Source: Candidatus Hadarchaeota archaeon
Lineage (GTDB): Archaea > Hadarchaeota > Hadarchaeia > Hadarchaeales > JAGGTB01
Direction of reading: 5' to 3'
Length of the DNA: 56,952 bases
NCBI GenBank assembly: GCA_964608515.1
Contig: CAZSNS010000003.1
Span: forward strand, 11,360 to 68,311
Under the pieces are notes generated by a model, which ran no database searches, was not told where the DNA came from, and was given only the letters and a program-made list of their open reading frames with translations. The position numbers were made by a program, and so were the translations under genes. Below are positions 4,291 through 56,952 of this stretch, in pieces; the first letter of the stretch is position 1; every line of letters starts with the position of its first letter.

Positions 4291-4309
4291 TTTGAAAAAA
4301 ATATTCTTG

Positions 4310-14614: not shown

Positions 14615-14678
14615 GTTTAATATTTCTCCATATCTTTTACCTATTTAAAAAATAAAAAATGAAAGGGATTGCTGGATT

Positions 14679-16677: not shown

Positions 16678-17304
16678 ATGCAAGAAAAAGTAGATAAAAT
16701 ACTAGAATATTTAGACAGTCAGGAGGAGATTCGAGAAAAATTACTCGATATCGCTCATGATGCTATTCGAAAATCTTCAAGTGCGATGGCAGCTTTTCAT
16801 AGAGGAAGTGAGGAAGAATACGAAAGTAAAATTAATGAGATTAAAAAGGATATCAAAAATCTAAATAAGATTACGGAATCAGACCCTCATTTTTTAGGTC
16901 ATGGTTCATTAATAGCCGCTCATCGAGAATTTTCGGAAGCTGTTCTCACAAAGGCTTTGATTACTGGGAAAGAATTACCTGATCCTGATGAGTTAAATGT
17001 TCTCTATAGGGGTTACTCTCAAGCTTTAGCTGAAACTATTGGAGAATTAAGACGTCATATTTTGAATTTGCTTCGTGAGGACGAGTTAGAAAAAGCTCGT
17101 GAGGTTCATGATAGAATGGAGAGGGTTTTCGATCAAATACAACAGTTTGATTATCCTGATTCTATCCTGTCTGGCATGAAACATAGGCGTGACGGAGCTA
17201 GAAAAAATCTTGAGAAAACAAGAGCTGATATTACCAGAGCTATTAGGGAAAGGAAACTGGAAGAAGCTTTGAAAAGTGCTGAGGAAAAGGTGGAAGAAGA
17301 ATGA
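16678..17304 (+). CDS. Translin-family protein
   Basis: All-helical ~208 aa with EIREKLLDIAHDAIRKS, EFSEAVL, YSQALAETIGELRRHILN and MERVFDQIQQFDYPD. Its stop overlaps the sepS start (ATGA). Confidence 0.65.
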   Translation: MQEKVDKILEYLDSQEEIREKLLDIAHDAIRKSSSAMAAFHRGSEEEYESKINEIKKDIKNLNKITESDPHFLGHGSLIAAHREFSEAVLTKALITGKELPDPDELNVLYRGYSQALAETIGELRRHILNLLREDELEKAREVHDRMERVFDQIQQFDYPDSILSGMKHRRDGARKNLEKTRADITRAIRERKLEEALKSAEEKVEEE

Positions 17305-39996: not shown

Positions 39997-40001
39997 ATAA
40001 A

Positions 40002-43000
40002 ATGCCCAACTCAGATGGGGAAACCCCAGTTAATCAGTCGGTTAGGCAAAACGCTTACCCCAGCCAGGAGAATGTCTTTTTCTCCGTAATTATAATCATT
40101 TTATTCTCAATATCAGGTTCCATAGGTTTTCTTTTCTTTTCCCATGCTGGGCTGGGCGGACTGGACCGTGGAAACCCGACCCAAAGTGACTATCTCGAAG
40201 ACGAGACCAATGAGATCGGTGCAGGTGTGGAGAACGTTGGAGACCCGACTTTGTTAGATATGTTCGGTGTTTTCGTAGATCATATGACAGGTGGCTCGCT
40301 TGGAGCTGGATCTGAATTTGGAAAAGATTTAGATATACAAGTGGAAGAACATCTCATTGCTGGAAACCCTGGGCCACCTGTTCTACAAATAGGACGAATG
40401 AATCAGGATTCTAGCTCCCCTCTCTCTGGGGGTTTGAGGGCGGAGCTGGATGGAGAGATTGAGGATTACTACCTTGGAAAGACTAGTACTGATCCTGATC
40501 CAGGTCCTGGTACAACTTTGATGGCTAATGGTAGCACTATGGGATTGTGCGATTTAACGGGACTTTGGGAAGGTTCCTATATGGGAATAAGTGGAAGTGG
40601 TCCTTCTCCTGTGGGTGATGGTACCAGCTACGATACCCTCACCCTTGGCCCCTTAGGCCATATCAATTTTCATAGCGGTCAATTAGGTGTCAACGTTGAA
40701 GACCCAATGAAGCTGCAATGGTTCACCCACATAACGCTAGACAGTTTAGTAATAGAAGGATTAGGCTACCCACTAGGACAAATAGATTCCAGACTTATCG
40801 ACAGCTCATGGCCAGCAGACAATGACTCTGGAGGAATGCTCGGCACCATGATTTTAGAAAGAGCTGAAATCAACTACCTAAATATTCACCTTCAAGAAGA
40901 TTTCGGCATGAGCATGATGGGTCAAAAATTCAACTTCGACGAACTAGAAATGGAATCCAACAACCTACTAGTAAAACACATGGGACCCGAACCCGGTGTT
41001 AACTGGGGGGACCCTCCAGAAGTTTCACACCCGGCAGCTTTCGGCCCAATGAAAATAGAAATCGTGGACGTAGGCCAATTAGACTTGAAACATTTGAGGA
41101 ACTTCAACGTCGACATTTCTGAAGTCGGAGTAGGTCTAGACGATTTGAGTTTGAATATGGACACCCTAAATATTAGAAATATATGGTCCGAAAGCATGGA
41201 GTTTGAAAAATTTGACATGAACAAACTAAACATAGGCCTACAAGGTTTAAACATAGACTCCGGAGCAAACGTTCCAATACCTCTCATGGGCACCCAAAAC
41301 AAACAACAAGTAGACCTTAAAAACCTTGACATGGGTTTGAACAACCTACAACTAAGAAATATGAGCGGACTCACAGCCATGGAAAGTGGCCACTTCGACT
41401 CATTTGTTATAGAAAATGTGAAAGATCTAAGAACAAAACTCCCGACCGAATTCACAGAAACTTGGAACGAAGAACAAGACTGGTTCAAAGGCACATCACA
41501 AAAAACTAGAGGTCCCAATGGCTCCCTCCGGCTAGACACAAATACTGTATGGGAAGGAGCATTGTGGTTTGATTCTGACGGAAGCAGCCTCACCACAACC
41601 CCACCCAACAATGAACAAACCGTACAATTTTACAGCGGGGATGGTTGGCCTCATAATTATGGTTGGCTCGATGAGGTTTATGTCTCTGGTGGATCGGATA
41701 TTCTCGTTGAGGAAGATGATAAATGGATAGCACAGTTGAAGGGACCCGGAGGTTTCTTTGATAAGGGCGTGACTTCAATGAGGGGAGAATATGCTCATAA
41801 GTGGACTTATCCTCATGAAGTTGAAATTGATCCTTCAGCTGGAGAGGATCTTGTAGTGGAGTACAAGGCGTCTGCGTCACTTCATGGAAAGACTAACTCA
41901 TCGAATACTTACAATTTCACACTAGACAGTTCCGATGTGCCTAGTGGCGCTCGGATTATCGAACCGACTTCATGGGATATCCACACTGAGCTTTATGGAA
42001 ATAATTATTCTGATATTACCATAACCGTATTGGGCATCGATTATGATACGGGTACTGGTGGAGGGTCTTGTGATCTTTATTGGAAATATGGGGATAAGGA
42101 TACGGCACCGTCGAGGATTGAAAATGTAAAATTTGCTTCCGGTTACTATGATAGTGGAACTCACACTTCAGAATGGCGAGATATGGGTGGAAACGTTGTT
42201 TGGGAAAATATACAAGTAAATGCCGGTATTCCAGCTGATACAAATGCTACAGCTGTAATTATTTCAAGTGAAGACGGAGCAAACTGGACCGATAGTAAAG
42301 CCATAGACTTACAAGACGGAAGTCATACCTATGACCTATCTGATTTAGAACCAGCTAAATACTTACGAATAGTGACCAACCTTTCAACTTCAGATCCCCT
42401 AAAAACCCCTAAGGTTCATGAATATAACGTGAATGCATCTACTAAACGGTGGGGTGGTCAATTAGCTCTTTATCTAGATAATCTTTCCGTTAATCTGACC
42501 AATCTGGATTTAGAAGAAATGAAAGGTATGAGTTGGGACAAACTCAACTGGGACGACTTGAATGCAGGTATAGACGATATTGATTTACTCTCTGCTTATA
42601 ACCAAAAAAACGTCTCTGGCTCTTTCAGCAGTTGGAAAGATCTCGACCAAGAAGATTGGATAAACTACTTAGAATCTAACTCTACACTCTCCTCAGGAGA
42701 CAGAGCAGCAGCAGTAATCAAAGTGGATAACAATACTGACCATACAACGATAACGGACACCACCGTCAGAGCACTAGACGGAGGAAAAGAAAGATTTGAT
42801 ATACAAGCAAAACCAGTACTTAATTTCGACGGCTCTGGTGATTATGGGGCAATTCAAGACCTACACTATGATACTGCGGGGGGAATATCGGAAATAACGG
42901 TAGGAGCATGGGTAAAAACGACCAGTTCGGACTATCAAATAATCTCATCTTATGATGCCAACGAATATTGGAGATTCGCCATAGGGAGTTCATGGGATGG

Positions 43001-46000
43001 AGCAGGAAGTAAGGGCTACCCAGCTTGGATAACGGCGAGCAATGGTGCAGGAAACCATAGCATGGTTGGAAACACGAAAGTCAATGATGGTGAATGGCAC
43101 CATTTAGTTGCAACTTATGATTCTTCCACTGGAGAGATGGGACTGTATGTGGATGGAAAATTAGATGCCACAGCAGAACCATATCCTGACGGAACAAACT
43201 TAGGAACGGGAACAACTAGATACGGATTCATTGGAACCGGGTCAGAAGCGTCCGGTTATAACGGTACTGTGGGTCCGAGTGAATGGATGAACGGATCACT
43301 CGATGATTTATATATTTACAACAATGCGCTTACAGAAAACGAAATCCAATCCATTTACAACAAAGACAAGTACATTCAAAACAATTTAGTTGGATATTGG
43401 CCTTTGGATGAGAGTCAAGGCGATAGGGCTTATGATTTATCCGGAAACAATAATCGGGGAGTCCTTCAAGGAGATCCAGAATGGGGGATAAGGGATAAAC
43501 CGAGTCTAAAAGACCATCAATACTATAAAGTCGACACGAAGGAGGATTGGTGGGATGTTGACCGTTATTTGTTATTTTCCGGGAAAGGGTCTCTTAGAAT
43601 AAATAATCTCGACATAAAACTTCCAAATGTGAGAGTTAATGACCCTGGAAAAGTGTTGACTTCTTGGAAAAGCCTAACTTCGGATAACGCTGTGATAGAA
43701 GTTCAAGACATACAAGCAGACACTCGAGGAATCGAATACAATATGAACGACCTCCTCGCCAACTGGACCGGTTTCAAATCCTCAGTTGACCGAGTCGGTT
43801 TAGGACCAGTTGTGAGCTGGGCTGTGGGTTCTGAATCCGAATGGGAAAAAGGTGTTATGGATAATGTGGAAGCGGATTCGCCAGAAGGCGAGTTAGAACT
43901 CGGATATCGCGACGGAGATTCAAAAGAGGGTCTTACCAGTTATTGGAGGTTCGACAAGGAAGAAGGAAGTGTGAAGGATTACTCAGGAGAAGGTAATAAC
44001 GGAACAAACTACGGTGCATCAAGAGGAGAAGTAGGAATTCTCGGTAGCGACGCTTTCTACTTTAACGGTTCAAATGATGATTATGTTCAAAGCACAGACT
44101 CAGTTCCCGTTCCTAGTAACGGTGCAATATCAGTTTGGATAAACGGTGAAATGGGCTCTCAAGTCAGTCAAAATATCTATCCCGCAGGATTTTATAAAGT
44201 ATGTCTTTTAGGACCATCAAGTGGTTCAAGTGGTAGAAGTGGACTCATAGCTAGGAATAGTGGGAGCAATTATTATTGGGATTGGGGAGATCAGAACATT
44301 TACAACGGTCAATGGCATCACTATGTCGTTACGTGGGATTCTTCGAACATTTATCTTTATTTAGACGGTCAACAAATTGGAAGTCCAAAATCTCACAATA
44401 ATAACATACCTTTTGGGGATTATAGAACTATCAACGCAGGAACAGCTTGGTCCAACGGCGGATATGGCCCCCACACAGGAAAATTAGACGAATTTCAAAT
44501 ATATGATAGACATCTTTCAGGTCAAGAAATAAAAGATCTTTATAAGAATCAAAATGGTTCTTTCCAGTCAACAGTACATGACTACGACAGAAAAGTATCA
44601 TTTAACAGTTTAAAAACCTCTTCAGTGCTGAACCCTTCACTCAAATTTGATGGGACTAGTGATTATGTTGGAATTCCTAATGATGCGAGTTTAAATCCAA
44701 ATAGTATTACAGTATCTGCTTGGGTAAGTTTAGAAAATGTTGGAAGCGGGTATAATGGAATCGTTGACAAAAGGTACAATGAAACTTATGCTTTATATCA
44801 GGATTCCGGTGATAAGGAATTTAATTGGTACGTTACGACAACTGATACTTCGTCATCTCTCAGGGATATAAGTTTGAATTTGGATGAATTCCACCACATA
44901 GCAGGTACTTATGATAGTTCTACGGGAGAGATGAGAGTATATAAAGACGGTAACTTGATCAAATCCACTACTATAAGTGGAAATCTTGCAAGTAATACTG
45001 CAAATCTTTATATAGGACTCCGGAAATCAACGGGGGATGTTTGGGATGGTCAAATAGATGATGTTCGAATCTATAATCGCGCCCTATCTCAAACCGAAGT
45101 TGAAGACCTTCACGAAAATCAACACATAACTAACGGACTCGTCGGTCATTGGCCATTCGATGAGGGTGGGGGTACAACAGCTTATGACGAGGCTTCTAAC
45201 AGCAATAATAATGGATATATTCATGGTCCTACTTGGAACTCGAATTCTTGGAATCCTAACACCGCAATCTCTGCACAAGTGGAGGTTTCGGACGATCCGA
45301 ATCTTAATTTCGATGGTTCGAATGATTATGTAGAAGTTCCAGATGAGGATTCTCTGGATATTACTGACAGGATAACTATTGCGGGATGGTTATATCTACG
45401 GAAAGATCCGGCACAGTGGAAAGGAATTGCGATGAAAGGAGGTTTCGACCCATATGGCGTATTGCTAGAAAGCGACTCAAGAGGACTTTCAGGTTCCGTC
45501 AACATCAGAGGTCAAAGACAGAAGCTGGACTCAAACTATGACCCTTCTAATATGGTTGGAAAATGGACACATTTCGTTTATACTTATGACGCTGGTTCAG
45601 GAGAAGCTCGAATTTATGTGGACAACCAACAAAGAAACAGTAGTAATTCTTTCGAAACAGGATCGATAGACATAGACCAAGACCCCCTAATCATCGGTGC
45701 CGAAGACGCTAACGGAAATCGGAGTTTTCCCGGAAAAATAGACGACCTTAAAATATATAGACGAACTCTAAACGAAAACGAAGTTTCCGACCTATACGAA
45801 AACAAACCAGTCCCACAAGGTCTTGTGGCCTCATGGTCATTCCAAAATGGTGTTGGAACCCGAACTGCAAAGGATGGGTCTGATTTCTCCCACGATGGAA
45901 CAATCCACGGCGCGAAATGGGACATGATAGTCAAAGGAACCAAAAATATTCCCGCTAGTGAAATACATGGCGGAACCGAATCTCACGGTCTTGGAGGTCT

Positions 46001-49000
46001 TCCAGAAGCCCAGTATGGAAGAGTTAAATTCGACCTCTCTAGCAATAGTATTGAAAAGTCACCCTCAATCCGAAAATTCTCCACCGATGTGAGTGCCGGA
46101 ATTATGGCGCAATGGGAGAGATTAGCCCTAACTGGAAAGGAATTACACTTTGAATTTAAAGATGATCTATTTGTAGAAAATCTAGGTCTTGAAGAGTTGG
46201 AATTAGGCCCGGTGAGTTTGGATAATTTAGAGATGGAAAGTTTAGGTTATGATTCAAACTGGATGTATGGAACTCTTGAAAACGGTGGAGTGGTTTCTGA
46301 TGATATGAAGATAAAAGGATTATTCGATATTCTCGGACCCTCGGCAAGGTTTGATAATTTCATCCTCCATCGAGATAATTTCCACGCTTTTGCGAACACA
46401 TTTTCCGCTAGAGGATTAAAATTCCGAGGAGAAAACGTGTTAGATAACTTTACAGCCAGAAACTTTGATTTCGTTTGGGAAAATTTCCATTACCAACTTG
46501 AAAAATTCAAGAAAGAAACATTCGACGCATCGGATTGGAAAGTGTCCTCTACAGAAGAATGGGATGCGGGGAATAAAGCTGACACACGAGCAGTGAGAGA
46601 TAGCCTACGGCTGGATACCAAGACAAAACATGCGGAGTGGAGATCAACTTCTGATTGGGAATCCGGATCAGGTAATAAGTACTATGTAAGATATGGGGAG
46701 TTAGGAATCGGATTCTACGACGACTTTGAAGATGGTTTATCCAACTGGAGTCCTCTCGGCGGAAGCAGCTGGACTACCACCTCCGAGGGTGAACTGAAAG
46801 CTACAAATGGAGGAGTGATAGTTTATGATGATCCGAATGTTGATTCAAGCTCTCTAGCTGATTCTACAATTAAAACTAGGACGGAAATGAAGGGAGGAAA
46901 CACCGGTATAGCCACGAGAGTCGAAGACTCTAGTAATTTTTACACACTCTATCTAGATAACGGCGGGAATATAGCTCGTCTAAGAGAGCGCTCTGGAGGG
47001 TCGTGGCAGTGGACACGGTCCGAAAGTGCCAATTACTATGAAAATACACTCTATCCTTTGAAGTTCGTAGCAAAAGGGAACAGTTTGGTCAGTAAAGAGG
47101 AGTCTAACGGTGTATTTCTTAATAACAGCGACTCAACCCATTCGAGCGGATACGTCGGTGTATATACTCCAAGTTCAGGAGCTTATTATGATGACTTTTG
47201 GCTACAGGGAGGGTACGGCTCCGCTACTTATAGGACGGAGTGGCGAGAGTTTGATAATGATGCGGCGCTTAAGACTCTCTCTGCAGATACGGTAATTAGT
47301 CCGAATCAGGGCATTACCGCTACAGTTCAGGTTTCTTCTGACGGTTCGACGGTAGCAGATTCCGTGGATAGGGTTTTGAGGAATGGTAAGAATTACTATG
47401 ATATTTCCGGATTGGCTGATGACTATCCATATGTGAGAGTCGTGTTGGACTTGAACACCAGCGATACTACTCTTTCACCGAGGGTTAAAAGCATTGGAGT
47501 TACTGAGAAGTCCGCTGAAACGTGGAAGGATCGAAACGAGTGGGCTGCAGGAAGGTTCGGTTTAGGGTCTACCCCATTCCATGAGCCTGGAAAAGAGTTG
47601 CTCTGGTCAGCTACGTCAGACTGGCGAAAAGGGTATACAGAGACGTTTGAAGATGGAGATGTCTCGGATTGGAATTTCATTTATAATGACAGTGATCCCC
47701 AGACGGGTCTTACTGACAGTCACTGTAAGGGTAGGTATGGGTTGAGAGTTGATGGGGACGATATTGCGGTATCTCCCAAGCTGGATCTCTCAGGGATGAG
47801 CGATGTAAGTATTACTGCTTATATGGATGTTTGGAGTATGGACGATGCCAGCGAGGATGGACATTTGGACTTTTATGATGGGGGTAGTTGGCACACGATT
47901 AATTCCTACCACAATGAAGACGGCAAATTCACTTACGACATTCCAGATGATTGGCTAAGCCCCAATAATAAGATAAGACTTCGCCTTGTCGGCGGGAACG
48001 GTGGAGGAGACCACGGAGTCGTTGACGAAATTTATATAAACTCCTTACATGGATTGACTGCTTTCGGTGGAAAACTAGAGTTAAAACAACTTGTACCCGA
48101 ACCGAAATTCGACGGTTGGGATTGGGACTTTTGGGACTCCGAATCTGGGGACTTAGATGAAGGTTATGCAAGTTATAGAGGATCCGGCGACAGTAGACAT
48201 GCCGAATTTCATGCAAGGACATCGACTGGTACTTGTTGGTGGCCTCCTACCGGTTGTGATAGCAGCGGTTCTCACCAAGGTTACGCTCAAGACTCTTTCT
48301 ACGTAGAGGACGCTTCTTTGGATAAGGAATTGAAATTCTGGTACGATGGTAGTGGGGGTGGTGACGGCGTGCCTACTCTTAGGATTAAGATCAATGATCA
48401 GCAAAGTTCCGGTTGGGGTTCACCCACCTATTCTAATGCTGTATCAGGTTCGGGTTCGGGCACTGTTACTTGGGATGTTACGAGCGCCTTTTCGTCACCA
48501 GGTAGGTATTATGTTCGGATTCGTACTGATATTAGCGTAGCAGCGTCGACTGGGTGGTTTGGTAGCGATTCTGATGAGTTCACATGGCAGGTGGATGACC
48601 TTTACATTTCTTATACGGAAGGAAAACACGTAACAGCTTGGCAGGATATGGGAGCTACTGTCGATTGGAATTATCTTAACTACCAAACCTCGATAGCTGG
48701 CGGAGAGGGTATAAATACAACGATAGAGGTAGATGATGACTCCAGACATCTTTCCGGAGTGTCATCAACTAAGCTAGGATTAGCTGACGGTTCATACGAG
48801 GAAGATCTCTCCAAACTCAAAGACGGAAAATATATAAGAATGATATCCAAGCTTTCTTCTTCTAATACACCAAATTCACCTACTCTCAGTAGGTATGAAA
48901 TCACATACGACACGCCCGAAGTCACGTCTTTAAAATCTCAAGACCTAATTGGTTTCTGGAAGTTCGAAAGCCCCGACGATGAAAAAGTTTTCGACGAAAC

Positions 49001-52000
49001 AGACTACAAAAATAATGGTAAGATTCGACACGAAATAGAATTGACCAGCAATTCAGAATGGTCACCTACCATTTTCTCATTTGACTATAATTCGGATACA
49101 GGTTCAAGCTCCCACGCCCATATAAGAAATAGCAAAGTTTCACTTGGAATTTATCCCCCAGAGCCCAGATTTGATGGATCGAATTGGGATTTCTCGGGCA
49201 GCACCACCGATTCATACGGGTACTCTGGGAATCGAGGACATTGGAGTTCAAGCCTGTCGGGAGGAGACCCGTGTCATCCTGTAGATAAAAGTACAAGCGA
49301 TGACGGTTACGCAGAGGATAGTTTCTATGTCGATGTTGATGATGTCGGTGATGAGACTATATCTTTTGACTGGGAAGCAAACATATGGAATAATGATGGG
49401 GATGACAGTGCTTCAGGTAGTCTAACGGTTGAACTTATAGATCCGGGCGGTAGCGTAATAGCTTCTGGTAGTACCGGAACAAAATCCAGCGACGGTACTG
49501 GAACTGTGACATTTAACGTTAGTTCTTCGGATTGGTCAGGTTCTGGAACCTATACAATACGAGCCCACGCGCATATAGACTTATCACTCCACGTTAACAC
49601 CGGTAATAATGACTCAGTAGGAATGGAGTGGTACGTTGACGGTGTTTGGCTAGGATTTGACTCCGGATGGCACGAAACACCATGGACGGACATGGGAGAG
49701 GACACGCCTCTGGGTGGTTTAGAAGCAAAAGCCAACATTGGTAGTGGGGATTCGATAAGTGCAACAATATATACCGACCCTGATTCCGATCACTCTAATG
49801 GAAACGAATCTTCGGTAAACGTAAACCTTTCTAACGGGACAAGTTGGCATGATATCTCGTCCTTAGCCTCCGGTCGGTACGTGAAAGTCAGGACGGATTT
49901 GTCGACCGATCGGAATTGGAGTAACGTTTCAGAGGTGGATTATTATGACATTTATACAGAAAAACCCTCTTATGAACATTGTTACGTGAGGAATAATAGT
50001 GTAGGGATTGGGGTCTACCCGGCAGAACCCGAGTTCGACAGTAATAATTGGACTTTTGGACAGAGTGGAAGTAGTGGGACCGCTAAGTATAGGAATGAAA
50101 AGGCTTACTTTTATTCAGGTGTCGGTTGCGATGCTACTGTAGGGTCGTGTAGTGACTCAAAAAATTGGTATGGTTATTCGGAAGACCAGTTCTATATCGA
50201 TACTCTGGGTATGAAAAACACTCAAACTCTAACTTACGACTGGGATGTGGACTCCAATACTCATGGGGATGGAGACGCTAATATTAATCAATCTAAACTC
50301 TGGATTTATCTTGAAACCCCCAGTGGTACTACGCATCTTCTAGACTCAGTAGATACGAACAATGGCTCCCAGAATGATAGATCTGTGAACATACCTGACT
50401 CGTATTGGGAAGTTTCCGGTCAGTACAAGATTCGAATGAGAGTAAGAATAGACACCGACGTAGATGTAGGCTTGCTTGAAACGAATGCTGCTGCTGAAAG
50501 TAGATGGTATGTGGACGATCTTAGAATCGGTTTCACTTCCGGTCAGCATGATACCGCTTGGAGAGACTTGGGTGAAACCACTGAACTAACTGATCTCAGA
50601 GCGGACGCTACCATTACACCTGGGCAATCAATTGATGCAACGGTGACAGTTGATTCCGATTCCGATCACAGCACTGTAGATGGTTCGACCACTGTAAGTC
50701 TAAGTGATGGGGATCATTTATTCGATATAAGCTCTCTTCCCTCCGCCCGATACGTACAAATCCAGACAAACTTCACAGCCAATTACCAGTACCCGAATAA
50801 GGCAGAGCTCCACTCCTATCAACTTATGGGTAATCCAGCTGGAGATAAGAAAAAATCAGGAAAATACGGCAATGCTATTGAACTTGACGGGGTTAACGAC
50901 TTCGTAAGGATTCCAGACGATGCCAGTCTTGACGTCACTAGCGAAGTCACCGTTTCCACCTGGATGAATATAGACAGTTATCCCAGTTCAGATAGTGCTA
51001 TTCCGTTAACTCACGGAGATTACGACGATTCTTGGTGGCTTGAACTCTACTCCGGCGGAGAATTAAGATTTTATGTAAATACAAATAACGGTCTCCGGAA
51101 AGCAATAATCAACAACGTATCCAGAAACCAGTGGGTTCACATAACCGGAACATATGACAAAGAATCAGGCCAGATAAGCGTTTATAAAAACGGTAAAATC
51201 CAAGATACGGTAGCACATTCCGGTCCTATAAAAACAACCTCAGCCCCTCTATATATGGGTAAAGGATTCGGATCAGGCTATGGTTCCAAATACTACGACG
51301 GTAAACTAGACGAAGTAGAAGTCTACAAAAGAGCACTAGCCGAAAGTGAAATCTCAGAAAAATGGGGCTTCTACACACACTGGCCATTCGAAGGAAAAGG
51401 AACGGGCAGAGCGTTCGACGCCCAAGGCAAATATGACGGAACAACCTCCGGAGGAGTTTCTTGGGTAAATGGCGGAGTTCATGGAAAGGCGTTAAAATTC
51501 GACGGGTCTGACGATTATGTGGCTGTTGATGATTTGGTTTATGACTCAACTGGAGCTATCGGTGAAATAACTGTTGCAGGATGGATTAAAACCAGTTCAA
51601 CCGATGATCAAGTAATAGCTTCATGGGACAGGGATGAATATTGGAGCCTCAACGTTGGAAGAAAGAGCTCAAACAACGAAATTACTTGGAGCACCACTAG
51701 CTCAGATGGAACAACCCATGATATGATCGGAAACACAGACGTGGATGATGATACATGGCACTTCGTGGCTGCCACCTACAGTGCTGTGACAGGCAAGAAA
51801 AAGATTTACGTGGACGGTGAATTAGATGCAGTTACACAACCTTATTCACCCGGAATACAGTTAGGAAAAGGAGAAGAAACGAGATACGGATTCATCGGTG
51901 AAGGATCTGAAGCTTCTAACTTTGACGGCGGTCGAAACAACAGTCTTTACTTTAACGGTTCCATAGACGAGTTAATGTTATTCTCTAAGGCTTTGAATTC

Positions 52001-55000
52001 TTCTGAAATGAAGAAATATATGAATCTCTACGGCGGAACGGACCTCAGCGAATATAAGAACATTAAAGAAGGATGGAGTCGAACTTCTTGGCGCGACTTC
52101 GGGCGAGAGGTGGCATGGAGCGAATTCATATCAGACGTAACAATTGAACCAGGACAAGCCATATACTCCACAGTGGATGTCACCAATCCGATTTATGAAC
52201 CTACTAGCTGGTGGACGATGGACGACGCCCACACCAGAGACAACACTCTCAAAGATTACTGGTCATCCTATGACGGCGAAATAAATGACGCTTCTCCAGG
52301 ACACACAGGAGTGTTTAACCAATCTTATAACTTCGACGGGACGGATGATTGGATTAATTGTGGCGATATAAACGTCCTTGACTCTTCATCAACCTTCACC
52401 ACCAGTTTATGGTTCAAAAGAGAAATAGATCAATCAGATGATTCAAACCATGGCACCAGTAATGTCATGTTTGCAAAGGCTAGCGATAGTGCTAATGATA
52501 TTATCGAAATAGGAACTGAAGGAAGTAATATAGAGATTTATTTAGACGCGATCGGAAATAATAAAATGGAAAGTTACAACGCAGGTATAAATAACAACCA
52601 ATGGTACCATCTTGCACTGACTTACGATAGCGGAGTAGTTAAATTATACTTGAACGGAGCCATGGTGAAGGAATGGACCGGCTGGGGCAGTCAACTAGAT
52701 GATGCTGGAAGTAGTCCTGTGACTCTTGGCAAAACCCACCATTCAGATATATACTTCGGCGGTCTAATCGATGAAGTCATGGTCTACGACAAAGTCCTCA
52801 AACATGGAGAAATACAAAAAATCAGAAACAAGATCAGAAACAAAGAAATTCGAGACAGGCAAGAATTCAGACTAGAGCACGGTCCTCACTCTCACTTCAT
52901 CCAAGAGATGTCGCCTGGTCGATACGCAAGAGTCACCACGAAAATGAGTTCAAATGACACAAGAAAATCACCATCGGTTAACAGTTATACGATATGGGAA
53001 GCTCCAACCTACAAGTCGCAAGGAAGTTATTCTATAACTCGGGATTGGGTGATGAGACGTGAATATACTGATTTTGGTGTTTCAAGTACTCTTCCTGAAA
53101 ATACTAACGCTTCTCTAGAGATACAAGTGAGCAATGACAAATCTAATTGGAATACGATCGGGAGCGACTCCGATTTAAGCGACGGATTTACTAAGATTGA
53201 ACTACCGAGCACTGCGGGTAGGTACTCTAGGGTCAAGTTTGATTTGTCCACTCAAATAGAGACTAGGACACCGGTCATTAATTACTTCACTATACGTTCT
53301 CCTGGCGGTAGCACTGTCAAGTGGCTTGAGGATAATCTGCATTGGGATAGGCTTGAAATGAACTTGGAACATTTTGTCGGTTTCAATGATGTTCTGAATG
53401 AGAACGCTGTCGAAACAATGACACTTGGGAAAGTGGACTTTTTCGACAAACTGCGGGTTGAAAACAATCTCATAGAGTTAGAAAACTTCCACTATTTAAT
53501 AGAGAACTATGATATAGTCTCAAGGGATGTATACCTTACCAATCCTGGAATAACTGATGTGTTAATGGAACAAATAGGAGATATGGGTTGGGATTATAGC
53601 GAACTGACGTGGGAAAACTTCACCTTCTCCCACGATAACATTTATGCTTATATAAAAAGCTTATCTGCAGAAGATTTGCCATTCCTCTCTGCTGGAACAT
53701 TAGGACTGGACAATCTAAAAATGGAAAACACGGTAATAAACTCTACAGACTTCCTATTCAATCTAGAAAACCTCTATTTCCTATCGGACAACGTGTATAT
53801 AGAAAATGTAGGAGTCAACGACTGGGTATACGAATCAATGGAAAACATGGGTTGGGACAACGGACAATGGGACTGGAAATTCTTCAATCTAAGAAACGAC
53901 CACCTATACGCAGATTCTGCCTATATGGACCAAGACGACTTACCCATCGGAGTCCCAGTAGATAATCTCGAATTAGAAAATCTAAAACTAAGCACAAAAG
54001 ACTTCCAATTCCGCTGGTGGAAACTAGCAGTGTGGTCAGATAACATAAACATGCACGAACCAGGCCTGCAAGACGTCCTAAAAAACTTTATAGAAAACAT
54101 GAAATGGCGCTACTCCCGACTCGACTTAGACAATATTTACGCAAAACACGACCGCTTCTACACTTCCTTAGAAAACATGACCCAAGAAGACATTCCGATG
54201 GATGTACCGATGTTTGACAATATAAAAATGGAAAACCTAGAAGCAACCTCCAAAAACTTCCTATATAACTTATTAGATCTGCGAGTCATAGCAGAAAACG
54301 TCAGACTCAGAACACCAGGCCTCACAGACGTTCCGATGGCTTTCATAGAAGAACTAGGCTGGGACAACAGCAGGCTAGAATGGGAAAACCTAGAAATAAC
54401 TAATGACTACCTCTGGACTCATGCAGAAAACCTAACCAAAGACGAAATACCTGCCGAAATACCGTTAGAAAACTTCCGAATCGAAAACCTAGAAATAACA
54501 TCAGAAGATTTCCTAGCCAACCTAATAGATCTACTATGGAAATCGAAAGGTGTTAACTCCGTGGAAAACCTTATCGCAGAATGGAAAATGGACGAAGGCG
54601 AAGGAAGTATAGCAAATGACACAGCGTATCAAAATGACGGACAACTCAAAAACGGTCCGGTATGGGATAACGGGTACTATGGAAACTCACTAAAATTCGA
54701 CGGCTCTAACGATTATGTCGAAACACCAGATGTAGTAGGTGGAGAAAACGAGATAACAATCAGCACATGGGTCAATCCCAAAGACTTTGAATCTCAAGAT
54801 AAGACAGTCGTGGGAACTTGGGGCACCCAAGAATTAACGTTATGGTATGATGTAGGAATGGACAATTGGAGCCTAATTGTTCACGACACCAATGGAAATA
54901 ATGTAAGAGTCAACGGAGGAAACCCACAAACTGGCGAATGGACACACTTGGCTGGAACATACAAGGACAACGAAAAACTAGAACTTTACATAAACGGAAC

Positions 55001-56952
55001 AAAAGTTGCCACCACAAATGCTCAAGGAAACCCAATAAACGATGGTGCTTCTTGGTTTGGAATAGGTTACGACTCCGCACACAATCACTGGAACGGAAAA
55101 ATAGACGAAGTCAAAATATTCGAAAGAGCTCTAAACGAAAATGAAATAGAAAACCTATACGTGGGAGACCCACCAAAAGGATTAGGACTCTTAAACTCAA
55201 TCATCGCCGACCCCTATATAAGCTGGGACAATCTAGACCTCGGAATCTCGCTAAAAACCCACGCAGATAAAATCTATGGACACTCCGACAACCTTACAAA
55301 AGACAACCTCTCGAGCCTACCCATAAGCATACCAACGGAAAAATTCCAGATTGAAAACTTCACACTCAACCTAGAAAACCTAAACGTAGGAATAATAGAC
55401 CTACTACTATCCTCCGATAATGTCACCTTACACACCATAAAACAATTCGGACCAGTCCTAGAAAACATTCGAAACTCCCTTAACATATCTTGGGAGAACA
55501 TCTATGCATCTCTAGAAAACACTAAAACCAGTTTGGATAGGTTGTATGCATTTTCTGAGAACTTGGATGGGGAAAACCTTTCTTCCGGCACATTTGGATT
55601 ATTTAGCGTTCCATTAGAAAACTTCTGGATGGAGAACTTCAATCTTAATTCCTGGAATACTTCATTCGGTCTGGAAAACTTCGGTTTAAGATTTGAAAAC
55701 GCTAGATTGGATAATTTAGACAATACGAAGAGTATGTTGGATAATGTTCTCAACTCATTTAAATACGTTAAATGGGATAACCTAAGAGCTGCCACTGAAA
55801 ACACTAATTTGCAAATAGAAAGGATTCATGGGGAAGACGATAATCTTACAAAAGAGAATTTGGAATCCTCATCCCTTGTACCATTCGACATACCAATGGA
55901 AACCTTATGGATTGAAAACTTAAAACTAGATTCAACTGACACCCGCATATCTATAATCGATTTCCGCATCCGATCAGAAAACTTGAAACTTGAAAATCTA
56001 AATAATACATCAGGCATTCTAGAAAACGTTTTGAATTCCATAGCCTTCATCAAAACAGACAATCTAAAACTCCAAAACTCTTCCAATGTTCAAGCCGACC
56101 ATTTCCACACATATTCGGAAAATCTACAGCAAGAAAATCTCGGAATAGAAATAATGGATAACTTATGGGTGGAAAATCTTGAGATAGAAACAGACTTCTT
56201 TAATGCAGGTTTACTCAATCTCGATCTTTTCTTTGAAAACATGCGGATCGAGAACGCTTCCGATACACAAGGAATGATTGAAAACATTTTCCAAAACATG
56301 ACCGCAGAATGGGAAAATATTTGGATGAATATAGAATCCGGAAGTTCTATCTTCGATAGACTCCGAGGATATTCAGAAAATCTCACACGAGATAATTTAC
56401 CCTTCGAGATAACTCCAGACGTATTTTGGATCAGTGATATCCAGATAAGAGCAGATAATGCGGATGGAAGATTAGAAAACTTCAAATTATCTTCCCGAAA
56501 TGTCCGAATAGAAAATGTGTCAGACCTTAATAGCACTATTGGAGAAGTCCAAGAATCTCTCAGATTAAGCTGGGACAATATCAATGCTAATTTAGAAAAT
56601 AGTGACCTCGAATGGAATAGACTCCACATGTTCGCTGATAATGTTACTGAGAATGATTTGCCTGTTGATCTTGGTTTGGATAATTTCATAGCTGAAAATA
56701 TTGAGGTTGATGTCGAGGACTTTAGTTCTTGGTTGGATAACTTTGGATTGAGGTTTGGAGAGTTTAGAATTGAGAATCTTGATAATACTTCTGGTATTTT
56801 GGATAATGTGAAGGATTCTTTTGAAGTTTTACGTTGGGATAATGTTGACGCTAATATCAGGGCGGGTGGTCTTGATTTTGACAGTCTTTATGCTGCTGCT
56901 GATAATGTTACTGAGAATGATTTGCCTGTTGATCTTGGTTTGGATAATTTCA
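40002..56952 (+). CDS. Giant surface protein (at least 5,650 aa, 3'-truncated by the window): N-terminal signal anchor, at least 8 LamG domains, recurring beta-sandwich-like modules, Asn/Leu-rich ~88-aa repeats
   Basis: In the frame with codon starts divisible by 3, the last upstream stop is TAG 39954-39956 and the first start is ATG 40002. I hand-translated 40002-43500 and 53280-56951 with no stop, and read the rest by eye. The track lists no + ORF in this frame, which it would if any stop existed. N-terminus: MPNSDGETPVNQSVRQNAYPSQENVFFSVIIIILFSISGSIGFLFF. Confidence 0.85.
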   Translation, partial: MPNSDGETPVNQSVRQNAYPSQENVFFSVIIIILFSISGSIGFLFFSHAGLGGLDRGNPTQSDYLEDETNEIGAGVENVGDPTLLDMFGVFVDHMTGGSLGAGSEFGKDLDIQVEEHLIAGNPGPPVLQIGRMNQDSSSPLSGGLRAELDGEIEDYYLGKTSTDPDPGPGTTLMANGSTMGLCDLTGLWEGSYMGISGSGPSPVGDGTSYDTLTLGPLGHINFHSGQLGVNVEDPMKLQWFTHITLDSLVIEGLGYPLGQIDSRLIDSSWPADNDSGGMLGTMILERAEINYLNIHLQEDFGMSMMGQKFNFDELEMESNNLLVKHMGPEPGVNWGDPPEVSHPAAFGPMKIEIVDVGQLDLKHLRNFNVDISEVGVGLDDLSLNMDTLNIRNIWSESMEFEKFDMNKLNIGLQGLNIDSGANVPIPLMGTQNKQQVDLKNLDMGLNNLQLRNMSGLTAMESGHFDSFVIENVKDLRTKLPTEFTETWNEEQDWFKGTSQKTRGPNGSLRLDTNTVWEGALWFDSDGSSLTTTPPNNEQTVQFYSGDGWPHNYGWLDEVYVSGGSDILVEEDDKWIAQLKGPGGFFDKGVTSMRGEYAHKWTYPHEVEIDPSAGEDLVVEYKASASLHGKTNSSNTYNFTLDSSDVPSGARIIEPTSWDIHTELYGNNYSDITITVLGIDYDTGTGGGSCDLYWKYGDKDTAPSRIENVKFASGYYDSGTHTSEWRDMGGNVVWENIQVNAGIPADTNATAVIISSEDGANWTDSKAIDLQDGSHTYDLSDLEPAKYLRIVTNLSTSDPLKTPKVHEYNVNASTKRWGGQLALYLDNLSVNLTNLDLEEMKGMSWDKLNWDDLNAGIDDIDLLSAYNQKNVSGSFSSWKDLDQEDWINYLESNSTLSSGDRAAAVIKVDNNTDHTTITDTTVRALDGGKERFDIQAKPVLNFDGSGDYGAIQDLHYDTAGGISEITVGAWVKTTSSDYQIISSYDANEYWRFAIGSSWDGAGSKGYPAWITASNGAGNHSMVGNTKVNDGEWHHLVATYDSSTGEMGLYVDGKLDATAEPYPDGTNLGTGTTRYGFIGTGSEASGYNGTVGPSEWMNGSLDDLYIYNNALTENEIQSIYNKDKYIQNNLVGYWPLDESQGDRAYDLSGNNNRGVLQGDPEWGIRDKPSLKDHQYYKVDTKEDWWDVDRYLLFSGKGSLRINNLDIKLPNVRVNDPGKVLTSWKSLTSDNAVIEVQDIQADTRGIEYNMNDLLANWTGFKSSVDRVGLGPVVSWAVGSESEWEKGVMDNVEADSPEGELELGYRDGDSKEGLTSYWRFDKEEGSVKDYSGEGNNGTNYGASRGEVGILGSDAFYFNGSNDDYVQSTDSVPVPSNGAISVWINGEMGSQVSQNIYPAGFYKVCLLGPSSGSSGRSGLIARNSGSNYYWDWGDQNIYNGQWHHYVVTWDSSNIYLYLDGQQIGSPKSHNNNIPFGDYRTINAGTAWSNGGYGPHTGKLDEFQIYDRHLSGQEIKDLYKNQNGSFQSTVHDYDRKVSFNSLKTSSVLNPSLKFDGTSDYVGIPNDASLNPNSITVSAWVSLENVGSGYNGIVDKRYNETYALYQDSGDKEFNWYVTTTDTSSSLRDISLNLDEFHHIAGTYDSSTGEMRVYKDGNLIKSTTISGNLASNTANLYIGLRKSTGDVWDGQIDDVRIYNRALSQTEVEDLHENQHITNGLVGHWPFDEGGGTTAYDEASNSNNNGYIHGPTWNSNSWNPNTAISAQVEVSDDPNLNFDGSNDYVEVPDEDSLDITDRITIAGWLYLRKDPAQWKGIAMKGGFDPYGVLLESDSRGLSGSVNIRGQRQKLDSNYDPSNMVGKWTHFVYTYDAGSGEARIYVDNQQRNSSNSFETGSIDIDQDPLIIGAEDANGNRSFPGKIDDLKIYRRTLNENEVSDLYENKPVPQGLVASWSFQNGVGTRTAKDGSDFSHDGTIHGAKWDMIVKGTKNIPASEIHGGTESHGLGGLPEAQYGRVKFDLSSNSIEKSPSIRKFSTDVSAGIMAQWERLALTGKELHFEFKDDLFVENLGLEELELGPVSLDNLEMESLGYDSNWMYGTLENGGVVSDDMKIKGLFDILGPSARFDNFILHRDNFHAFANTFSARGLKFRGENVLDNFTARNFDFVWENFHYQLEKFKKETFDASDWKVSSTEEWDAGNKADTRAVRDSLRLDTKTKHAEWRSTSDWESGSGNKYYVRYGELGIGFYDDFEDGLSNWSPLGGSSWTTTSEGELKATNGGVIVYDDPNVDSSSLADSTIKTRTEMKGGNTGIATRVEDSSNFYTLYLDNGGNIARLRERSGGSWQWTRSESANYYENTLYPLKFVAKGNSLVSKEESNGVFLNNSDSTHSSGYVGVYTPSSGAYYDDFWLQGGYGSATYRTEWREFDNDAALKTLSADTVISPNQGITATVQVSSDGSTVADSVDRVLRNGKNYYDISGLADDYPYVRVVLDLNTSDTTLSPRVKSIGVTEKSAETWKDRNEWAAGRFGLGSTPFHEPGKELLWSATSDWRKGYTETFEDGDVSDWNFIYNDSDPQTGLTDSHCKGRYGLRVDGDDIAVSPKLDLSGMSDVSITAYMDVWSMDDASEDGHLDFYDGGSWHTINSYHNEDGKFTYDIPDDWLSPNNKIRLRLVGGNGGGDHGVVDEIYINSLHGLTAFGGKLELKQLVPEPKFDGWDWDFWDSESGDLDEGYASYRGSGDSRHAEFHARTSTGTCWWPPTGCDSSGSHQGYAQDSFYVEDASLDKELKFWYDGSGGGDGVPTLRIKINDQQSSGWGSPTYSNAVSGSGSGTVTWDVTSAFSSPGRYYVRIRTDISVAASTGWFGSDSDEFTWQVDDLYISYTEGKHVTAWQDMGATVDWNYLNYQTSIAGGEGINTTIEVDDDSRHLSGVSSTKLGLADGSYEEDLSKLKDGKYIRMISKLSSSNTPNSPTLSRYEITYDTPEVTSLKSQDLIGFWKFESPDDEKVFDETDYKNNGKIRHEIELTSNSEWSPTIFSFDYNSDTGSSSHAHIRNSKVSLGIYPPEPRFDGSNWDFSGSTTDSYGYSGNRGHWSSSLSGGDPCHPVDKSTSDDGYAEDSFYVDVDDVGDETISFDWEANIWNNDGDDSASGSLTVELIDPGGSVIASGSTGTKSSDGTGTVTFNVSSSDWSGSGTYTIRAHAHIDLSLHVNTGNNDSVGMEWYVDGVWLGFDSGWHETPWTDMGEDTPLGGLEAKANIGSGDSISATIYTDPDSDHSNGNESSVNVNLSNGTSWHDISSLASGRYVKVRTDLSTDRNWSNVSEVDYYDIYTEKPSYEHCYVRNNSVGIGVYPAEPEFDSNNWTFGQSGSSGTAKYRNEKAYFYSGVGCDATVGSCSDSKNWYGYSEDQFYIDTLGMKNTQTLTYDWDVDSNTHGDGDANINQSKLWIYLETPSGTTHLLDSVDTNNGSQNDRSVNIPDSYWEVSGQYKIRMRVRIDTDVDVGLLETNAAAESRWYVDDLRIGFTSGQHDTAWRDLGETTELTDLRADATITPGQSIDATVTVDSDSDHSTVDGSTTVSLSDGDHLFDISSLPSARYVQIQTNFTANYQYPNKAELHSYQLMGNPAGDKKKSGKYGNAIELDGVNDFVRIPDDASLDVTSEVTVSTWMNIDSYPSSDSAIPLTHGDYDDSWWLELYSGGELRFYVNTNNGLRKAIINNVSRNQWVHITGTYDKESGQISVYKNGKIQDTVAHSGPIKTTSAPLYMGKGFGSGYGSKYYDGKLDEVEVYKRALAESEISEKWGFYTHWPFEGKGTGRAFDAQGKYDGTTSGGVSWVNGGVHGKALKFDGSDDYVAVDDLVYDSTGAIGEITVAGWIKTSSTDDQVIASWDRDEYWSLNVGRKSSNNEITWSTTSSDGTTHDMIGNTDVDDDTWHFVAATYSAVTGKKKIYVDGELDAVTQPYSPGIQLGKGEETRYGFIGEGSEASNFDGGRNNSLYFNGSIDELMLFSKALNSSEMKKYMNLYGGTDLSEYKNIKEGWSRTSWRDFGREVAWSEFISDVTIEPGQAIYSTVDVTNPIYEPTSWWTMDDAHTRDNTLKDYWSSYDGEINDASPGHTGVFNQSYNFDGTDDWINCGDINVLDSSSTFTTSLWFKREIDQSDDSNHGTSNVMFAKASDSANDIIEIGTEGSNIEIYLDAIGNNKMESYNAGINNNQWYHLALTYDSGVVKLYLNGAMVKEWTGWGSQLDDAGSSPVTLGKTHHSDIYFGGLIDEVMVYDKVLKHGEIQKIRNKIRNKEIRDRQEFRLEHGPHSHFIQEMSPGRYARVTTKMSSNDTRKSPSVNSYTIWEAPTYKSQGSYSITRDWVMRREYTDFGVSSTLPENTNASLEIQVSNDKSNWNTIGSDSDLSDGFTKIELPSTAGRYSRVKFDLSTQIETRTPVINYFTIRSPGGSTVKWLEDNLHWDRLEMNLEHFVGFNDVLNENAVETMTLGKVDFFDKLRVENNLIELENFHYLIENYDIVSRDVYLTNPGITDVLMEQIGDMGWDYSELTWENFTFSHDNIYAYIKSLSAEDLPFLSAGTLGLDNLKMENTVINSTDFLFNLENLYFLSDNVYIENVGVNDWVYESMENMGWDNGQWDWKFFNLRNDHLYADSAYMDQDDLPIGVPVDNLELENLKLSTKDFQFRWWKLAVWSDNINMHEPGLQDVLKNFIENMKWRYSRLDLDNIYAKHDRFYTSLENMTQEDIPMDVPMFDNIKMENLEATSKNFLYNLLDLRVIAENVRLRTPGLTDVPMAFIEELGWDNSRLEWENLEITNDYLWTHAENLTKDEIPAEIPLENFRIENLEITSEDFLANLIDLLWKSKGVNSVENLIAEWKMDEGEGSIANDTAYQNDGQLKNGPVWDNGYYGNSLKFDGSNDYVETPDVVGGENEITISTWVNPKDFESQDKTVVGTWGTQELTLWYDVGMDNWSLIVHDTNGNNVRVNGGNPQTGEWTHLAGTYKDNEKLELYINGTKVATTNAQGNPINDGASWFGIGYDSAHNHWNGKIDEVKIFERALNENEIENLYVGDPPKGLGLLNSIIADPYISWDNLDLGISLKTHADKIYGHSDNLTKDNLSSLPISIPTEKFQIENFTLNLENLNVGIIDLLLSSDNVTLHTIKQFGPVLENIRNSLNISWENIYASLENTKTSLDRLYAFSENLDGENLSSGTFGLFSVPLENFWMENFNLNSWNTSFGLENFGLRFENARLDNLDNTKSMLDNVLNSFKYVKWDNLRAATENTNLQIERIHGEDDNLTKENLESSSLVPFDIPMETLWIENLKLDSTDTRISIIDFRIRSENLKLENLNNTSGILENVLNSIAFIKTDNLKLQNSSNVQADHFHTYSENLQQENLGIEIMDNLWVENLEIETDFFNAGLLNLDLFFENMRIENASDTQGMIENIFQNMTAEWENIWMNIESGSSIFDRLRGYSENLTRDNLPFEITPDVFWISDIQIRADNADGRLENFKLSSRNVRIENVSDLNSTIGEVQESLRLSWDNINANLENSDLEWNRLHMFADNVTENDLPVDLGLDNFIAENIEVDVEDFSSWLDNFGLRFGEFRIENLDNTSGILDNVKDSFEVLRWDNVDANIRAGGLDFDSLYAAADNVTENDLPVDLGLDNF
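40005..40014 (+). repeat. GC-rich motif half-site E2 (codons 2-5 of the giant ORF)
   Basis: cccaactcag, 21 nt downstream of the same decamer-like arm in copy E. Confidence 0.5.
40144..40170 (-). repeat. GC-rich motif copy F (inverted, compact), inside codons ~48-57 of the giant ORF
   Basis: + strand atgctgggctgggcggactggaccgtg; reverse complement cacggtccagtccgcccagcccagcat. Confidence 0.6.
42819..43360 (+). other. LamG/ConA-like (Laminin_G_3 type) domain 1 of the giant ORF
   Basis: LNFDGSGDYGAIQD ... DGEWHHLVATYDSSTGEMGLYVDG ... GSLDDLYIYNNALTENEIQSIY. Confidence 0.8.
44055..44545 (+). other. LamG-like domain 2
   Basis: FYFNGSNDDYVQS ... NGQWHHYVVTWDSSNIYLYLDG ... GKLDEFQIYDRHLSGQEIKDLY. 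Confidence 0.75.
44640..45113 (+). other. LamG-like domain 3
   Basis: LKFDGTSDYVGIPND ... EFHHIAGTYDSSTGEMRVYKDG ... GQIDDVRIYNRALSQTEVEDLH. Confidence 0.8.
45303..45797 (+). other. LamG-like domain 4
   Basis: LNFDGSNDYVEVPDE ... GKWTHFVYTYDAGSGEARIYVDN ... GKIDDLKIYRRTLNENEVSDLY. Confidence 0.8.
48090..50826 (+). repeat. Three tandem ~270-aa coding supermodules (48090-48912, 49149-49958, 50013-50826)
   Basis: Each starts (L/I/V)(V/Y)P(x)EP(K/R/E)FD(G/S)xxW(D/T)F, has ..GY(A/S)(Q/E)D(S/Q)FY(V/I)(E/D).., and ends in a W-module: H(V/E/D)T(A/P)W(Q/T/R)D(M/L)G ... (K/R)Y(I/V)(R/K/Q). Confidence 0.75.
50877..51365 (+). other. LamG-like domain 5
   Basis: IELDGVNDFVRIPDD ... NQWVHITGTYDKESGQISVYKNG ... 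GKLDEVEVYKRALAESEISEKW. Confidence 0.8.
51492..52023 (+). other. LamG-like domain 6
   Basis: LKFDGSDDYVAVDD ... DDTWHFVAATYSAVTGKKKIYVDG ... GSIDELMLFSKALNSSEMKKYM. Confidence 0.8.
52326..52830 (+). other. LamG-like domain 7, apparently nested inside a W-module
   Basis: YNFDGTDDWINCGD ... NNQWYHLALTYDSGVVKLYLNG ... GLIDEVMVYDKVLKHGEIQKIR. Confidence 0.75.
53322..54560 (+). repeat. Asn/Leu-rich ~85-90-aa coding repeat array, part 1 (units U1-U5)
   Basis: Unit anchors (Trp of W-D/E-N or equivalent) at 53322, 53589, 53853, 54105 and 54360, giving periods of 267, 264, 252 and 255 nt. Confidence 0.8.
54690..55160 (+). other. LamG-like domain 8, splitting the ~88-aa repeat array
   Basis: LKFDGSNDYVETPD ... 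TGEWTHLAGTYKDNEKLELYING ... GKIDEVKIFERALNENEIENLY. Confidence 0.8.
55224..56952 (+). repeat. Asn/Leu-rich ~85-94-aa coding repeat array, part 2 (units U6-U12; the last is cut by the window end)
   Basis: Anchors at 55224, 55491, 55773, 56055 (T instead of W), 56310, 56571 and 56835, giving periods of 267, 282, 282, 255, 261 and 264 nt. 55 nt are identical between 56634-56688 and 56898-56952. Confidence 0.85.

Follow-up and report, generated by a model that had tools for sequence, protein, structure and literature searches.

Giant bacterial adhesins carry tandem extender modules of ~80–100 residues, such as BIg/Ig-like domains and rods of the SasG G5-E type. The hallmark of leucine-rich repeats (LRRs) is an LxxLxLxxN/CxL core in each repeat of 20–30 residues, right-handed parallel beta-helices are built from three-stranded coils of ~22–28 residues that stack in parallel, and the ice-binding protein of Lolium perenne reportedly forms a beta-roll with a 7-residue xxNxVxG repeat. 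Giant LamG-bearing surface proteins of other archaea (DPANN/Nanohaloarchaeota) have been interpreted as adhesion, cell- or host-contact proteins (PMC10266531). Here we describe a tandem repeat of ~88 amino acids (aa) in a giant LamG-bearing protein encoded on 56,952 nucleotides (nt) from a Candidatus Hadarchaeota archaeon (assembly GCA_964608515.1, contig CAZSNS010000003.1, positions 11,360 to 68,311, forward strand), the whole of which we call the window. Hadarchaeota are uncultured subsurface archaea, and we know of no description of their cell surface. By analogy with known adhesins, we consider it about an even bet (probability near 0.5) that the repeat array is the elongated, acidic, probably N-glycosylated, beta-rich stalk or spacer of a giant membrane-anchored hadarchaeotal adhesin, with the eighth LamG domain inserted into it.

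A hidden Markov model (HMM) built from five obvious units recovers 12 head-to-tail units, five at 53322–54596 and seven at 55224–56951. Unit 12 is truncated by the window end, and 12 is a lower bound. The seven units outside the training set were found with independent E-values (i-E) of 9e-5 to 2e-17 and scores of 9–50 bits (six of the seven at 23–50 bits), and an HMM of all 12 units gives each full unit 67–102 bits. Among 200 residue shuffles of the repeat region, the top whole-sequence score against the 5-unit HMM was 4.8 bits. The preliminary description of this DNA, which had proposed a tandem protein repeat of ~88 aa with at least 12 units, is upheld, and the example unit it quoted is the exact translation of 55491–55772. 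Units are 84–94 aa long and share 14–42% pairwise identity, with the exception of units 11 and 12 (64%), which have an identical stretch of 54 nt (the last 54 nt of unit 12). Tandem Repeats Finder reported no DNA-level repeat in the array because the units are too diverged. As also described before, the array is split by LamG domain 8, which sits exactly between units 5 and 6 in place of the last ~12 positions of unit 5. The units, all on the plus strand and numbered from the first letter of the window, are as follows.

53322..53588, +, repeat unit 1; i-E 9.4e-5 (5-unit HMM) and 5.6e-23 (12-unit HMM)
53589..53852, +, repeat unit 2; i-E 1.1e-9, untrained
53853..54104, +, repeat unit 3; i-E 2.9e-9, untrained
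54105..54359, +, repeat unit 4; i-E 2.3e-10, untrained
54360..54596, +, repeat unit 5; i-E 1.3e-13, untrained, HMM positions 1–69 only; its C-terminal helix segment gives way to LamG domain 8
54597..55226, +, LamG domain 8 (Laminin_G_3, PF13385), between units 5 and 6; aa 4881–5090
55224..55490, +, repeat unit 6; 5-unit and 12-unit HMM
55491..55772, +, repeat unit 7, the example quoted earlier; 5-unit and 12-unit HMM
55773..56054, +, repeat unit 8; 5-unit and 12-unit HMM
56055..56309, +, repeat unit 9; i-E 2.4e-17, untrained
56310..56570, +, repeat unit 10; 5-unit and 12-unit HMM
56571..56834, +, repeat unit 11; 5-unit and 12-unit HMM; query of the structure model
56835..56952, +, repeat unit 12; i-E 4.8e-10, untrained; truncated by the window end
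46101..46529, +, degenerate units M1 and M2, mid-protein; i-E 8.6e-6 and 3.9e-6 (12-unit HMM lacking them)

The two mid-protein relatives, M1 and M2, had also been suspected, and a profile built without them finds them at i-E ~1e-5 to 4e-6; a phmmer comparison of block 2023–2152 (the M1/M2 region) with block 4426–4572 gives 3.8e-5. They lie directly after a partial copy of a discoidin-like domain of ~105 aa, and the main array likewise follows a copy of this domain. Further degenerate relatives had been suggested near the N-terminus (~40.9–41.4 kb); these have a similar flavour and are not significant (i-E 0.018 or worse, single-sequence search).

The repeats consist of 13% Leu, 12% Asn, 18.5% Asp plus Glu and 6.9% Lys plus Arg, with no Cys, which corresponds to an isoelectric point (pI) of 4.16 and a net charge of -11.6 per 100 aa. 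The depletion of Lys and Arg has no parallel in the cytoplasmic proteins of the window. The proposed construction from [ED]-N-hydrophobic sub-motifs is borne out by 67 [DE]-N-[LIVFM] triplets in the array, compared with 7.3 +/- 2.5 in shuffles. A strict count gives 5.9 triplets per unit, so that the earlier figure of about ten does not apply to the triplets themselves; it holds for the consensus only, in which a unit has 12 polar [DE][ND] doublets. In our unit alignment (A4; 16 rows, on which all column numbers are based), these doublets are found at columns 2, 9, 16, 23, 28, 37, 42, 49, 56, 63, 68, and 78. They split the unit into 12 segments of 7, 7, 7, 5, 9, 5, 7, 7, 7, 5, 10, and 11 residues, those of 7 and 5 residues taking the form [DE]-N-h-x-h (h, hydrophobic), and hydrophobic and polar columns alternate strictly between the doublets. 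The beta hydrophobic moment exceeds the alpha moment at columns 1–70, and the reverse is found at columns 70–84, the last ~15 columns.

Self-similarity of the column profile within the unit peaks at offsets 14, 40, 26, 7, and 21 (z 4.3–4.8). The offset of 40 identifies the unit as an internal duplication of a heptad-based half-unit; in an hhalign self-comparison of the unit profile, which told us less than these offsets, the internal match is insignificant (E 0.021). There is also mirror symmetry about a loop at columns 28–36, above the 95th percentile of permuted columns. Indels are restricted to these loop columns and to columns 70–75, and Trp1 and two prolines (columns 31 and 35) are conserved across units. 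An N-L-T sequon occurs at column 24 in 7 of the 12 units, and the array as a whole holds 23 sequons against 13.7 +/- 3.3 in shuffles.

The conservation patterns are what suggests that the modules fold. Each ~88-residue unit would be a folded, mainly beta extracellular module, and a head-to-tail row of such units, 12 or more of them inside the window and others past its end, would make up a strongly acidic, probably N-glycosylated stalk. A unit would comprise two halves of ~40–47 residues (7,7,7,5,9,5 and 7,7,7,5,10,11), in which a [DE]-[ND] doublet is followed by h-x-h(-x-h). The first ten segments may form short beta-strands with polar Asn/acid corners, and the last an amphipathic helix. Conserved corner Asn and Asp/Glu residues would then link neighbouring strands through hydrogen-bonded ladders, which might also bind cations. 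Binding, presumably of glycans, would be left to the eight LamG domains (concanavalin-A-like lectin domains) and the discoidin-like domains, with the repeat supplying length and rigidity and bearing LamG 8, which is inserted after unit 5. We infer the extracellular location, the stalk role, glycosylation, the ladders, and the exact fold.

AlphaFold2 was run on a single unit (unit 11 as query, 16-row alignment), and one of five models reaches a predicted local distance difference test (pLDDT) score of 61. This model has two long strands (residues 5–26 and 40–61) forming a beta-hairpin and a helix at 74–83, with pLDDT 74–81 over residues 10–50. We take from it only that the unit is predicted to be mainly beta with a C-terminal helix, as the model and the sequence pattern agree on this. 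The topology may be one long hairpin in each unit, a meander or sandwich of beta-strands, or a beta-roll or solenoid of 12–14- or 26-residue coils. The periodicity (7, 14, 21, and 26) and the interrupted beta alternation would fit a beta-solenoid or beta-roll and a beta-meander equally well. With regard to the coil length of beta-helices, offset 26 has a z of 4.4, yet the segment lengths show no 26-residue translation and the models are of low confidence.

Several points weigh against the stalk. The structure predictions give no confident fold: only the one single-unit model scored 61, AlphaFold2 on three units (4-row alignment) gave a pLDDT of 30, and Foldseek found nothing better than E 0.68 for the single-unit model in the PDB. 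The stalk role is argued by analogy, divergent units (14–42% identity) on a conserved scaffold are also typical of ligand-binding solenoids, and the C-terminus of the giant protein lies outside the window.

The host protein is encoded by a single open reading frame (ORF). The frame of position 53322 is open from 39957 to the window end without a stop, with the first ATG at 40002, giving at least 5,650 codons, and the protein would rank among the largest archaeal proteins on record. Pfam finds Laminin_G_3 eight times in this ORF, always in the same frame, and therefore the frame chosen in the preliminary description is the true coding frame. Iterated searches place the envelopes of LamG 1–4 at aa 939–1146, 1335–1538, 1533–1731, and 1751–1964, and those of LamG 5–8 at aa 3613–3817, 3813–4031, 4096–4300, and 4881–5090 (aa numbers count from nt 39957). 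PF13385 totals 327.8 bits over the C-terminal half of the protein, where the best stretch is LamG 8 (profile positions 1–150 of 151, residues 2100–2249 of this half). A hydrophobic segment of 21 residues, starting 25 residues past the ATG at 40002, suggests the membrane topology of the protein. The ~105-aa domain has a weak, sub-threshold Pfam similarity to the F5/8 type C (discoidin) domain; for the copy upstream of the array, F5_F8_type_C_2 is found below its cut-off at E 2e-4.

40002..56952, +, giant ORF, the product of which bears the repeat; 5,650 aa or more, still open where the window ends; pI 4.4
40077..40139, +, N-terminal hydrophobic segment FFSVIIIILFSISGSIGFLFF, a signal anchor or long signal peptide as read from the translation
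53019..53303, +, copy of the ~105-aa domain directly upstream of the array; 88 bits with the domain HMM, weak F5/8 type C similarity
42138-42452, 47196-47516, 48597-48920, 49638-49970, 50517-50840, 53019-53303, all +, copies of the ~105-aa domain found with its own HMM

Head-to-tail modules, an anchor, and binding domains, the combination that characterizes adhesin extenders, are all found here, as 12 units, the hydrophobic segment, eight LamG domains, and the discoidin-like domains. The repeat resembles the bacterial extender modules in unit size, in its arrays of a dozen or more head-to-tail units, in its acidic and presumably extracellular nature, in the interspersed binding domains, and in the predicted elongated beta structure. 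It differs from them in having no sequence or profile similarity, in a heptad construction that is foreign to Ig-like modules, and in its archaeal host. With the giant LamG proteins of Nanohaloarchaeota (PMC10266531), the protein shares an archaeal origin, a length of several thousand residues, a pI of ~4, a membrane anchor, and the combination of LamG and beta-sandwich domains. The host here is a hadarchaeon, however, the 88-aa repeat is absent from those proteins (a profile search returns only the two relatives P0001 and P0002, see below), and the in-window part of the protein shows no VirB4-like ATPase domain.

The repeat could not be placed in a described family by the preliminary description, and our searches lead to the same result: nothing in Pfam, NCBIfam, PHROGs, or the PDB sequences passes threshold. 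With the arrays (A and B) as queries and E up to 10, Pfam returned sub-threshold noise only. The top match, DUF3737, scored 19.0 bits against a cut-off of 23.9 (E 9e-4) over one stretch of array A and was matched by none of the 16 units scanned singly, which hit eight different families, one unit each. We take DUF3737 to be a member of a beta-helix clan, and a literature search on it found nothing. Literature searches on Asn ladders and on Hadarchaeota together with hypersaline habitats likewise returned nothing specific. NCBIfam has nothing for the arrays, PHROGs gives sub-threshold matches only (E 0.058 or weaker), and profile and single-sequence searches of the PDB sequences yield nothing at E below 0.09, the top matches being coiled-coil proteins driven by composition. 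The repeat is thus a new sequence family without a match to a described one, although its kind is familiar, namely tandem modules in a giant surface protein. The C-terminal third of the giant protein is a module that no domain library detects.

Likeness to LRRs lies in the tandem Leu/Asn-rich units, in the short beta-strands followed by a conserved Asn, in the helix that ends some LRR units, and in the occurrence of LRRs in extracellular recognition proteins. The repeat lacks the LxxLxLxxN/CxL core, however, and has a period of 7/5 within an 88-residue super-repeat rather than one of 20–30. In line with the earlier remark that the classical LRR spacing is not matched, the degenerate core occurs once in 1,000 residues (1.33 +/- 1.09 in shuffles) and the strict pattern never, and no LRR family of Pfam is found at E up to 10 for the arrays or up to 1 for each of the 16 units; we therefore rejected the LRR assignment. 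Beta-helices and beta-rolls with Asn ladders (pectate-lyase-like, NosD) are similar in their short strands, inward aliphatic residues, and corner Asn, and the heptad-type sub-period with offsets 14 and 26 is a further likeness. The repeat has N-h-x-h in place of N-x-V-x-G and no Gly turns, and it differs from beta-helices by its 88-aa hierarchy with a terminal helix and by the missing profile match (no beta-helix family of Pfam exceeds its curated cut-off for the arrays or the 16 units); the fold predicted for it comes from a low-confidence model.

Searched with the profile, 1.84 billion representative proteins gave eight matches at E of 0.001 or better. Six of these (P0003-P0008) were rejected as compositional, being low-complexity and mostly coiled-coil-like. 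The true relatives, P0001 and P0002, both come from one Logan-assembled metagenome sample. In P0001 (312 aa), a membrane segment at the N-terminus precedes two full units (56 and 37 bits) and the start of a third. P0002 (709 aa) scores 43.6 bits against 6.4 bits for its own shuffles and has about three recognizable units; a more degenerate stretch rich in ENL/DNF comes next, and the membrane segment of this protein is at the C-terminus. By tblastx, their contigs match the window inside the repeat only. The locus of one relative (L001, 939–1877) breaks off mid-unit, and that of the other (L023, 70–2199) starts mid-unit with TTG just after an in-frame stop. The two loci may be fragments of a single larger gene that the assembly broke at repeats, or they may encode membrane proteins that are truly small. 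A word-indexed search of 5.8 billion proteins found no match to array B and only the queries themselves for P0001 and P0002, and scans of genome contigs (array B) and metagenome contigs (arrays A and B) found no relative. As relatives come from one sample and the other searches were empty, the family is real but extremely sparse in public data.

Sampled words of the repeat region are present at 98% in the sediment metagenome X1 and at 6–9% in two hypersaline-lake metagenomes. In run X2, a relative could be aligned over 501 nt with 80 substitutions, no indel, and the frame kept. Codon position 3 takes 23 of the 40 listed changes, and 13 of 30 changed codons are synonymous, the other 17 being mostly conservative replacements. 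This divergence fits a protein that would be under purifying but relaxed selection. The X1 assembly breaks at the identical stretch of units 11 and 12, with a backward joint of 264 nt, which equals one unit; loose ends past 56951 continue as LVENLRLEVF, and a contig of 1,324 nt at equal depth has two matches to the conserved core at a distance of 258 nt. The array therefore extends past the window by at least several units. Short X1 contigs with word depths of 54x and 99x (baseline 8.6x) match the core (A)DNVTENDLPVDLGLDNF with 3–4 mismatches (window 56634–56680 and 56892–56951), and these may represent many further copies or abundant related strains.

The array itself might be the recognition surface, an LRR-like or beta-helix-like solenoid in which an Asn/Leu scaffold displays variable partner-binding residues, and we retain this as a tentative alternative to the stalk. 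Conservation of the scaffold with divergence of the remainder to 14–42% identity, short h-x-h strands with Asn corners, periodicities of 14 and 26, and the high frequency of replacements when related populations are compared (17 of the 30 changed codons) all agree with it, as does the weak DUF3737 match (19 bits, below the cut-off of 23.9). On the other hand, the LRR core stays at chance level, no unit matches an LRR or beta-helix model of Pfam, the sole structure model obtained is not a solenoid, and the protein already has at least 14 recognizable binding-type domains. A more far-reaching proposal, which we consider doubtful, is an undescribed beta architecture of 7/5-residue [DE]-N-h-x-h segments, with Asn/acid corners aligned in ladders, that forms a rigid polyanionic rod or sheet and binds cations or the surfaces of minerals or salt crystals in saline sediment; it would be mirror-symmetric about loop columns 28–36 or built from 12–14-residue coils. 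Improbable, too, is a function in which flat, ordered rows of Asn, Asp, Glu, and Thr bind cations or attach to a crystalline surface, be it a mineral, a salt hydrate, or ice-like water, as in beta-roll ice- or calcium-binding repeats. The heptad-based period, each segment having one conserved Asn as well as aliphatic residues, the strongly acidic, Cys-free composition, the sediment source, and the relatives in hypersaline-lake metagenomes point in this direction, but there is no sequence similarity to solved ice-binding or RTX-type proteins, the repeat has no Gly-rich turn motif, and the Lolium ice-binding heptad, which it resembles, has a different register.

Biased composition (Leu 13%, Asn 12%, Asp plus Glu 18.5%), low AlphaFold2 confidence, and spurious database matches to low-complexity coiled-coil proteins would all be expected of a low-complexity, largely disordered acidic linker, the repeat of which arose from recent duplication and composition. 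We regard such a linker as quite improbable, as units old enough to have diverged to 14–42% identity keep their hydrophobic positions, Trp1, both prolines, and indel-free segments, composition-matched shuffles do not exceed 4.8 bits, and large hydrophobics make up 32% of the residues in a strictly alternating pattern, which is atypical of disorder. The heptad period could in principle reflect an alpha-helical coiled coil, in agreement with the prominent offsets of 7, 14, and 21 and with weak matches to HEXIM1, CCDC96, and the coiled-coil proteins of the large search. This is very improbable: hydrophobic residues occupy positions i, i+2, and i+4 of the heptad and not a/d, columns 1–70 have a larger beta than alpha moment, prolines are conserved at columns 31 and 35, and the model is beta. 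The coiled coil was rejected on the tests of hydrophobic spacing, moment, and proline.

Should the array serve only as a spacer, its alignment could seed a family model that annotates more than 1,000 residues here plus the relatives. A new beta architecture, if confirmed, would contribute a further building block to the known repeat folds and offer a handle, as a profile or antibody target, to trace the surface proteins of this lineage in metagenomes. If it also binds cations or mineral surfaces as outlined above, a new fold class and a new surface-attachment function would be added in a deep-branching archaeal lineage.

The archaeal origin of the DNA, also recognized in the preliminary description, follows from the gene for SepRS (O-phosphoseryl-tRNA synthetase; 17301–18878, +). 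Its product shares 78% identity with the SepRS of one Hadarchaeota metagenome-assembled genome, ~57% with the enzymes of other Hadarchaeum genomes, and 40–58% with those of other Hadarchaeota, Asgard, and Bathyarchaeota genomes, which places the window in Hadarchaeota. FEN1, TFB, and TYW1-like genes are located nearby. The giant gene is located in a cell-envelope gene island. Upstream are genes for glycosyltransferases and radical-SAM enzymes, for two proteins of the sulfatase family, and for a membrane protein resembling flippases, and then for several membrane-anchored surface proteins, namely a PQQ beta-propeller, a NosD/Beta_helix protein that also has an InlB B-repeat, and an unassigned protein of 455 aa. 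A true Beta_helix/NosD protein is encoded two genes upstream of the giant gene. Rfam and tRNA scans of the window were empty, and an exact-protein look-up of one neighbouring gene returned no record. At 13604–15848 (-), two adjacent paralogous genes encode secreted or membrane-anchored Lys/Glu-rich proteins of 336 and 389 aa, of which the latter matches the DUF5667 domain.

The ~105-aa domain is present in at least six copies in the giant protein (88–138 bits each with its own HMM). It also terminates a neighbouring protein of 478 aa (ORF 18888–20324, -), which begins with an AbrB/MazE-like domain and also contains a membrane segment. Between ~48070 and 50830 (aa 2700–3620 of the giant ORF), there are three copies of a super-repeat of ~290–350 aa, for which Pfam has no family; the copies match each other with phmmer E-values down to 1e-26, and each terminates in the ~105-aa domain. 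The G+C (guanine plus cytosine) content is 0.40–0.45 across the giant gene (40001–56952) and 0.32–0.39 in positions 1–40000, a rise that could stem from the amino-acid composition or from a foreign origin. Within the repeat array, an antisense ORF of 199 aa (56090–56689, -) probably arose as a side effect of GAA/GAT-AAT-TTG-type codons, the antisense of which is poor in stops.

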